This document shows, one piece after another, positions 13,240-15,107 of a DNA stretch of 64,000 bases. The stretch's first letter is position 1. Each line of letters starts with the position of its first letter. Source of the DNA: Parachlamydiales bacterium. Its GTDB lineage: Bacteria > Chlamydiota > Chlamydiia > Chlamydiales > Rhabdochlamydiaceae. The position numbers and the translations under genes are program-made. The notes under the pieces were generated by a model that saw only the letters and a list, made by a program, of their open reading frames with translations, ran no database searches and had not been told where the DNA came from. The stretch is from assembly GCA_963705295.1 (NCBI GenBank), contig OY970065.1, positions 1,440,001-1,504,000 on the forward strand, read 5' to 3'.

Positions 13240-15107
13240 ATGAAAAATTTGAAATACTGTTTGTTTATTTTATTAACAGGGAACTAAAAAAGATGACAAA
13301 GAGCGCTAGCGAGGCAAAGCCAGATCGATTCTCGCGAGGAATAACATTCTTGAATACGAAGGATTCCGAGCGAGAATCGATATGGCGAAGCCGTAGCAAG
13401 CTATTTGTCACCTTTTTTAGTTCCCTGTTAATATTTGCACTGTTTTCGTCTGTTAATGGTGATGAACCGATTGTTTTGAAGGTAAAGACAGCTGTTAACC
13501 CGGATAATGCATTAATTATTGATTTTAAGGTGAAATTGAATAAGCCGGCTATTCTTAAAATTTCTTATTGGAATGAAGAGGCGGGTGCATTCAAATATAA
13601 GCCACAACTCGACTTTTCTACGAGTCAGAGGTTTTCGATTCTTAGACTCAGGGCAGAAACCACTTATCGTTATTCTCTTGTTGCCATGGATCAAGAAGGT
13701 CATCGTTCTGAAAAATTCACTGGTAAGTTCACGACAGGCCCACTTCCGCCAGAAATAGCTGACATTTCTATTAAATTAACTCAAGGGAAAAGGACGACTT
13801 ATCCTCTGACACTTTTTGATCAAAACACCAATTTTTTTAATGGATATATTGCCGTGGACTCAACCGGACAAATTGTTTGGTATTACCAAAACCCGTTGGT
13901 GGAGCAGGTTGGAAATATCATCAAAATGCCCAGTGGAAATTACTTATATGCATCTGGCTTCTTTCTAAGCGGTTCATCGAATACCTTGGTAGAGATAACC
14001 CCATTTGGTCGGATGGTTCGGCAAAGCCCTCTTATTTGCAACTCATCCGTGCCCGTCATCGGTGGTGTTGATCTCCACGATATGCAGTATGTTGATGGTA
14101 AGATCCTTCATCTTGGTCAATTGGCTCCAAAGGTTCATGGATTTTCTCGTCCTCAACTGGGTGGAACGATCCGTGAATGGAATCTCGGGACAAATACAGA
14201 TCGCCTGGTATGGAACCCTTTTGACTTCCTTAACCCTGTTTCAGATAGATCGTCTTTATCGAACGTGATTATCGATCTGAGCTGCAAGGCGGCTATTCCC
14301 GCCCAAGATTGGATCCATTCCAATGCTCTTGCAATAGGATTAGACAACAACTTCATTTATGGCTCGAGAAGCCTCAGTCATGTCATCAGCCTAGGTCAAC
14401 ATCCTGACCCGAGAAATGAAGAGATTGCTGTTTGTCACCCCAGTAGAAAAGACCTTCCCTGCAGACAATGGATCTTAGGTGGAATTGACAGCGATTTTAC
14501 ATTTCCAAATCCAGATGATCAATTTTATAATCAACATAATCCACAACAAATTATTAACCTGAGGGGTCAAAAGGCGACAAGATGCGCTGCGAGGCAAAGC
14601 CAGATTGATTCTCGCGAGGACTACATTCTTGAATATGAAGGATTCCGAGCGAGAATCGATATGGCGAAGCCGCAGCAAGCAGGTTGTCACCTTTTGACCC
14701 CTCGGGTTAATAAATCAAGCAAATTTAAAACAAATATTCTTCTGTATGATGACGGAAATGAGAGACCCGCTTCACAAGGTGGGCAGTATTCTCGTGCTCT
14801 AGAGCTCGAACTCAATTTTAAGACAATGGAAGCTAAGAAAGTGTGGGAATACCGGCATAAGCCAGATATTTTTACGGATGCAGTGGGTAGTGTAACGAGA
14901 CTGGACAATGGAAATACGGTCATCGATTTTGGGTTCCCGCCAGTTCAGGATCCAACAACCCCGCCTACCCTCAGAATCATAGAAGTCACTCGGAAAGGGA
15001 AAATCGTTGCAGAAATCAATGTCAAAGCCTCAAAGAAAGTTGGGGATAATCTCATTTATAGAGCTCATGTCTTGGATACTCTCGCTGGGGAAAAACAGGT
15101 CCCATGA
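13240..15107 (+). CDS. Secreted arylsulfotransferase (ASST)-like beta-propeller protein carrying two palindromic insertions
   Basis: DWIHSNA, FYNQHN, LYDDGN, SRALE and GSVTRLDNGNTVI motifs; N-terminal Ig/Fn3-like part. The ancestral ATG at 13240 is frameshifted by an element; the current in-frame ATG is at 13293. Confidence 0.8.
13276..13428 (+). mobile_element. Palindromic miniature element (MITE-like), family A copy 1
   Basis: 30-bp inverted repeats 13271-13300 / 13404-13433 with one mismatch; flanked by TA; interior nearly identical to copy 2. Confidence 0.9.
14557..14707 (+). mobile_element. Palindromic miniature element, family A copy 2 (in-frame in CDS)
   Basis: Inverted repeats 14551-14580 / 14684-14713 with two mismatches; TA flanks; 153 bp net insertion = 51 codons. 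Confidence 0.92.

Follow-up and report, generated by a model that had tools for sequence, protein, structure and literature searches.

The window analysed here comprises 64,000 nucleotides of a Parachlamydiales bacterium genome (GenBank assembly GCA_963705295.1, contig OY970065.1, positions 1,440,001 to 1,504,000), and on its forward strand lies a gene for an arylsulfotransferase (ASST) that carries two copies of a hairpin-forming element. The mature enzyme is encoded at 13461..15107, with the frame open to the TGA at 15105. It was assigned by matches to PF05935 (E 1e-27), to E. coli AssT (3ELQ, E 3e-18 by profile) and, in Foldseek, to 4p07 (E 8e-17). Residues H287, H367, N369, R384 and H440 are invariant or nearly so in the homolog alignment; they presumably form the catalytic His/Arg/Asn set, of which H436 is named in PDB titles. 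A hydrophobic N-terminal stretch is present in 10 of 13 ASST homologs. The best homologs are only 27–33% identical, with no close ortholog; the 12 other chlamydial PF05935 proteins align in short stretches only. A protein query did not find ASST in 18 other genomes of the genus, nor was the family found in 8 sampled congeners.

The first copy of the element, e1, lies across the start of the gene. It is a 163-nt palindrome at 13271..13433, made up of a TA (13271-72), a 159-bp element (13273-13431) and a second TA (13432-33), with 30-bp outer arms and an inner stem; sequence and fold both bear out the palindrome that an earlier note on this DNA had placed at the insertion. For the region 13205-13470 the folding energy is −103.4 kcal/mol (z = −11.4), a stability equalled by 0 of 200 shuffles, and the outer arms are mismatched at 1 of 30 positions, A13293 versus C13411. 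The native signal-peptide start at 13240, with further in-frame ATGs at 13225 and 13231, now begins an upstream ORF (uORF) of 15 codons (13240..13287) that ends, as the note had seen, at the TAA at 13285-13287 in the left arm. The ATG borne by the element (13293..13295) stands 5 nt past this stop and opens a 604-codon frame to the TGA at 15105, both insertions included. This frame runs through a CGA codon (13326..13328) and the basic WRSRSK into the right arm (13401..13433), which encodes the hydrophobic LFVTFFSSLLI and continues, again as noted earlier, into the native FALFSSVNG (13434..13460), the end of the h-region and the c-region, with V and G at −3 and −1 of the presumed cleavage site. 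A GTG at 13218..13220 is an alternative start of the enzyme frame, giving an 81-residue leader, and the database protein P0001 begins here.

The ends of the element read TA-TTAAC ... GTTAA-TA, TTAAC being part of the element and not of its target. The e1 footprint is 161 bp (159 plus one TA), and hence a frameshift, because only a TA is left at element-free orthologs of an AbiEii-family gene that carries another copy. A cut that leaves the TA was best in 11 of 11 such orthologs (16–34 of 45 matches, versus 4–13 for two other cuts), which are 60–85% identical and concern an insertion different from e1. The earlier note had proposed that excision of 155 bp restores the frame of ATG 13240. Removal of the element plus one TA does reopen that frame, but a 155-bp cut would retain two element codons, and with TTAAC counted to the element the native peptide is two residues shorter than the note's version. 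We rejected the 155-bp footprint, since it is contradicted by the element-free orthologs, which fit TA duplication; the 8-mer target that it requires is not depleted (76 observed on both strands versus 60–71 expected).

The second copy, e2 (14552..14712; 159 bp plus one TA), was overlooked in the earlier note, as was the T-to-C state at 13326 described below. It is inserted in frame and adds 53 residues a few residues past His440. The segment is missing from 12 of 12 aligned homologs, and the structure model shows it as a loop of low confidence, flanked by strands that are placed with confidence.

A family of TA-flanked hairpin elements

BLAST returned 84 element loci in the 2.13-Mb source genome, 71 of them full length; the counts given here exclude the 13 partial or divergent loci. 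In 71 copies, 19 or more of 26 arm bases in the terminal inverted repeats are complementary, a TA stands at both ends in 60 of 71, and the inserted length ranges from 118 to 207 bp. By its inverted repeats, its TA duplication and its short, multicopy form without a transposase, the element is MITE-like, of the TA class. Insert lengths fall into the three frame classes as 30/21/20 among the 71 copies, with no genome-wide frame bias. Of 129 genomes of one chlamydial family, 37 contain related elements.

A search of the source genome (94.7% complete) for a partner transposase in three families gave no match to PF13358 or PF01609 and one broken PF01797 fragment. In five relatives no PF13358 gene had element-like ends, and the IS630 ends present in a relative are unlike those of the element. 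Flanking ORFs (62 of 107 scanned) included one transposase, of IS110 type and not adjoining the element. Paralogous empty sites were not found within the source genome. We also considered a structured RNA family; this was dropped, as Rfam gave no match at the gathering score and sub-threshold hairpin matches only.

Correia/NEMIS, RUP and ERIC elements (PMC2229807) are likewise short and non-coding, with inverted repeats, TA duplication, a long stem-loop and dozens of copies. The element described here, however, is a different sequence family, and its arm interiors vary between subfamilies yet remain self-complementary. In the 71 copies, G-T wobbles at arm mismatches favour one strand (37 versus 16, the copies not being independent). 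Together, the wobble bias and the complementary arm interiors hint at selection on a single-strand hairpin.

Two further copies lie in the window, one at 21742-21861 (120 nt, internally shortened) and one of a longer subfamily at 63562-63749. Elsewhere in the source genome, two solo arms 1.3 kb apart (C1:1948250-1949541) flank one ORF, presumably thioesterase-like by its motif, with no transposase between them.

The base at position 13326

Comparison of e1 with its closest relatives revealed one private state, a C at 13326, where 6 of 6 copies with the same core have T. With T the codon is TGA, the sole stop between ATG 13293 and the right end of the element; with C it is CGA. Among the 38 full family-A copies, 36 have T at the equivalent position and two have C. 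The other features of the reading frame are common property: sister copies inserted elsewhere also have the element ATG and encode a nearly identical peptide, basic and then hydrophobic. Both the ATG and the hydrophobic arm belong to the subfamily as standing features and are not site-specific adaptations. The earlier note had seen the single arm mismatch as a G-to-A change that creates the in-frame ATG 13293; the mismatch (1 of 30) and the ATG in the enzyme frame are there, but the ATG did not arise at this site, since 3 of 3 sister copies carry it, and we set aside the G-to-A change as the adaptive one.

Position 13326 lies in the inner stem opposite G13379, where T forms a wobble and C a pair. 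The wobble is fixed from the left in 2 of 38 copies, both of them gene-start copies, and from the right in another 2, where there is no gene to rescue, so that the pair is altered in 4 of 38 in total. Position 13326 is a mutable site, easily reached since C corrects the T-G wobble. Five other rare changes likewise occur in two copies each. C is common in the wider family: CG stands here in 10 of 21 matches in loci of relatives, some of these loci being duplicated. In the tree, e1 shares a clade of 98/99 support with three copies that have T, at a distance from the second C copy, whose grouping with C copies from another genome is weak (87/73). The second C copy may, therefore, be an older retained state rather than a new mutation. 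Whether C was new or old, we infer that selection acted as a filter on the allele that persisted.

A second gene-start copy with an opened frame

The second C copy (source genome 443688-443849, minus strand) interrupts the signal-peptide codons of an SBP_bac_3 amino-acid-binding lipoprotein and is likewise out of frame. Here too C opens the frame, which runs from the element ATG via the right arm to the native lipobox, with 49 residues before the Cys. The lipoprotein gene was matched in 19 of 19 genomes of the genus, the source genome among them, and most of the orthologs have short leaders. A codon-model screen of the 71 copies identified 19 with coding sequence downstream, four of which lie within 30 codons of an ATG that no other ATG follows for 80 codons. 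Three of the four are family A: two are out of frame, and both have C; one is in frame, in the signal of a GMC oxidoreductase, and has T. The fourth belongs to another subfamily, is in the opposite orientation and is not rescued. Within family A, out-of-frame gene-start status and C coincide with a Fisher p of 0.0014, or 1/37 when conditioned on the focal copy (n=2), the lipoprotein site having been classed as a signal-peptide insertion before its base was seen and the class limits set after looking. With TTAA at 5.9 per kb in signal-like gene starts and other starts alike, a preference for the former would not be accounted for by the density of targets.

In two other genomes, where unrelated palindromes are inserted in frame within the n-region of the orthologous lipoprotein gene, leaders of 54 and 76 residues precede the Cys. 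Long leaders recur in the genus, and their open frames suggest that they are tolerated. In a third genome a palindrome, again of another family than the element, lies just upstream of the same gene (the three loci together are L028 in G014, L032 in G010 and L036 in G016).

The GMC oxidoreductase copy (C1:1899858-1900018, L022) follows codon 8 of the signal peptide, and translation passes through the right arm in the same, hydrophobic frame. At another site (C1:598852-598944, L023) a copy without a left arm directly precedes a DUF3298 lipoprotein gene, with an ATG and a few codons upstream of it and, just past the right arm, ATGs at which the gene can start; it may represent a fourth insertion into a signal peptide, one that was resolved when the arm was lost.

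Other copies disrupt genes without rescue, one of them near a gene start; by their motifs, the broken genes are presumably Fic-, ankyrin- and F-box-like. Copies also cluster within about 1 kb, three at C1:726171-727413 and two at C1:1308543-1309016, with the host genes broken by in-frame stops. In relatives, a small sample of 22 copies in 45 loci contained no like rescue and two in-frame insertions. In-frame copies in other genomes were seen at L047:908-1726 and L082:991-2442, one of them within an AMP-binding enzyme.

Proposed rescue of export and its alternatives

We propose, as the somewhat more probable account of the ASST locus, that export was rescued under selection by the stop loss. 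A TA-targeting, non-autonomous MITE landed out of frame after codon 11 of the signal peptide, and the allele that persists has CGA for the family's TGA, which joins the element ATG in frame to the enzyme. Ribosomes would initiate at the native ATG, terminate 15 codons on within the left arm and, with the hairpin not yet closed, start again 5 nt further on. The product would have a 56-residue leader, with its basic end and the greater part of its hydrophobic core supplied by the T-rich right arm and with the native cleavage site retained. The Kyte-Doolittle mean of its best 12 residues is 2.42, against 2.6 in the empty allele, with a net charge of +4 ahead of them; its predicted n-region, at 36 residues, is unusually long. 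Selection would then have filtered for the open frame, at a base readily reached by correction of the T-G wobble, and the amino-acid-binding lipoprotein would have taken the same route. The earlier note's idea that the element was exapted to rescue export gains support, but through the stop loss at 13326, which has its counterpart in a second gene, and not through the G-to-A change that it named.

The position of the two starts fits this proposal. Opening the 25 nt around ATG 13293 in the folded hairpin costs 32 kcal/mol, versus 5 for the native ATG. A point against the proposal is that ATG 13293 has only a GGA ahead of it. When an assumed footprint of 30 nt is held open at the uORF stop, the cost falls to 2.9 kcal/mol at ASST and to 2.3 at the lipoprotein. 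The gap between uORF stop and element ATG is 5 nt in the former and 4 nt in the latter, and a stop so close before the ATG in both genes fits termination-reinitiation within an otherwise closed hairpin. In three E. coli pairs, re-initiation across a +2 nt gap remained at 30–95%, with losses of 5, 20 and 70%, and a gap of 38 nt nearly abolished it (PMC10666635). That starts masked by a hairpin can be opened by an upstream ribosome is established (PMC12548453).

It is possible, though on balance we doubt it, that the family as a whole is predisposed to heal the signal peptides that it breaks: a stop in the arm with an ATG 4–5 nt on, a T-rich arm that can serve as h-region and a single wobble pair between closed and open frame may have led to repeated conversion into uORF-coupled export signals.

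Another explanation is that the locus is a neutral relic: the insertion knocked out a dispensable, recently acquired ASST, the frame came open by chance through the mutability of the wobble pair, and the hairpin prevents translation in any case. We regard this as rather unlikely, and yet several observations are in its favour. The gene took two insertions, the second close to His440, and an ortholog was not found in the genus (18 genomes by protein query, 8 by family). Changes at the wobble pair are seen in 4 of 38 copies, each of five other rare changes is found in two copies, and opening the start de novo would cost 32 kcal/mol. Unrescued broken genes exist as well, and intactness of an ORF is uninformative; indeed, the intact mature ORFs prove little, because under neutral decay at the elements' own divergence both would remain intact with a probability of 0.11–0.52. 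Against this explanation, chance (1/37) would have had to place the second C on the one remaining copy that is out of frame at a gene start, where the gene is retained in 19 of 19 genomes, and both ASST insertions leave a single open frame of 604 codons.

A genuine rescue could also start at GTG 13218, with the whole element read as an 81-residue leader or as an uncleaved membrane anchor. The frame is open from before 13218, the GTG lies outside the hairpin, 11 nt past the stop of the upstream gene, and C13326 would be needed here too. The lipoprotein copy, however, has no such upstream frame (it is closed up to element position 7), and the element ATG alone therefore accounts for both cases, which makes the GTG start improbable. 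Very improbable, in our estimate, is the reversible on/off switch by precise excision that the earlier note had raised. Removal of the element and one TA would reopen the native frame, but this holds for any TA-duplicating insertion. The three-family search left the switch without a matching transposase in the 94.7% complete genome, the IS630 ends in a relative are unlike those of the element, and with a switch the stop loss would be unneeded. A search for reads turned up no RNA run and a single DNA run, whose two short pieces lie outside the e1 site.

The proposed rescue of export by stop loss differs from the known cases in several respects. Predicted signal peptides formed by MITEs have already been published for Yersinia YPAL/RU-2 (Delihas 2007, PMC2759123; Delihas 2008, PMC2229807). 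YPAL/RU-2 has no TA termini and a standing open frame, whereas the element described here has TA termini and entered an existing signal out of frame. Its own frame is closed in 36 of 38 copies, and the two with an open frame are those that need it. Rickettsia palindromic elements (PMC2229807, PMC10969869) are hairpins of about 150 bp in frame within protein genes, as are e2 and four other copies here, the likeness being drawn from their descriptions; they keep the host start and frame, whereas e1 breaks the frame and would supply a new start. Mycobacterial MIRUs (PMC12548453) and Neisseria REP2 (PMC3184786) are repeats that spare the target gene through their own start codon or a coupled short ORF, as may be the case here. 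MIRUs, however, insert at start codons with the element ORF upstream, whereas here the truncated host start is the upstream ORF and the element would become the N-terminus of the protein. Searches of the openly accessible literature yielded neither a published case in which stop loss rescues an out-of-frame insertion nor a description of this element family.

Fusions of MITEs with proteins are usually taken as tolerated accidents for which selection is not demonstrable. Here the dozens of near-identical copies control for one another, and a single diagnostic base follows the need for an open frame from copy to copy. Should the protein be exported, this would be a clean, testable case of junk DNA turned into a targeting signal twice in one genome, and it would predict which alleles survive in related genomes.

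Repeats of other kinds are also present in the window: tandem paralogs lie at about 4.1–6.1 kb, and a stretch of about 700 nt is repeated 5.3 kb apart (57188-57882 and 62529-63218) with 92–95% identity.
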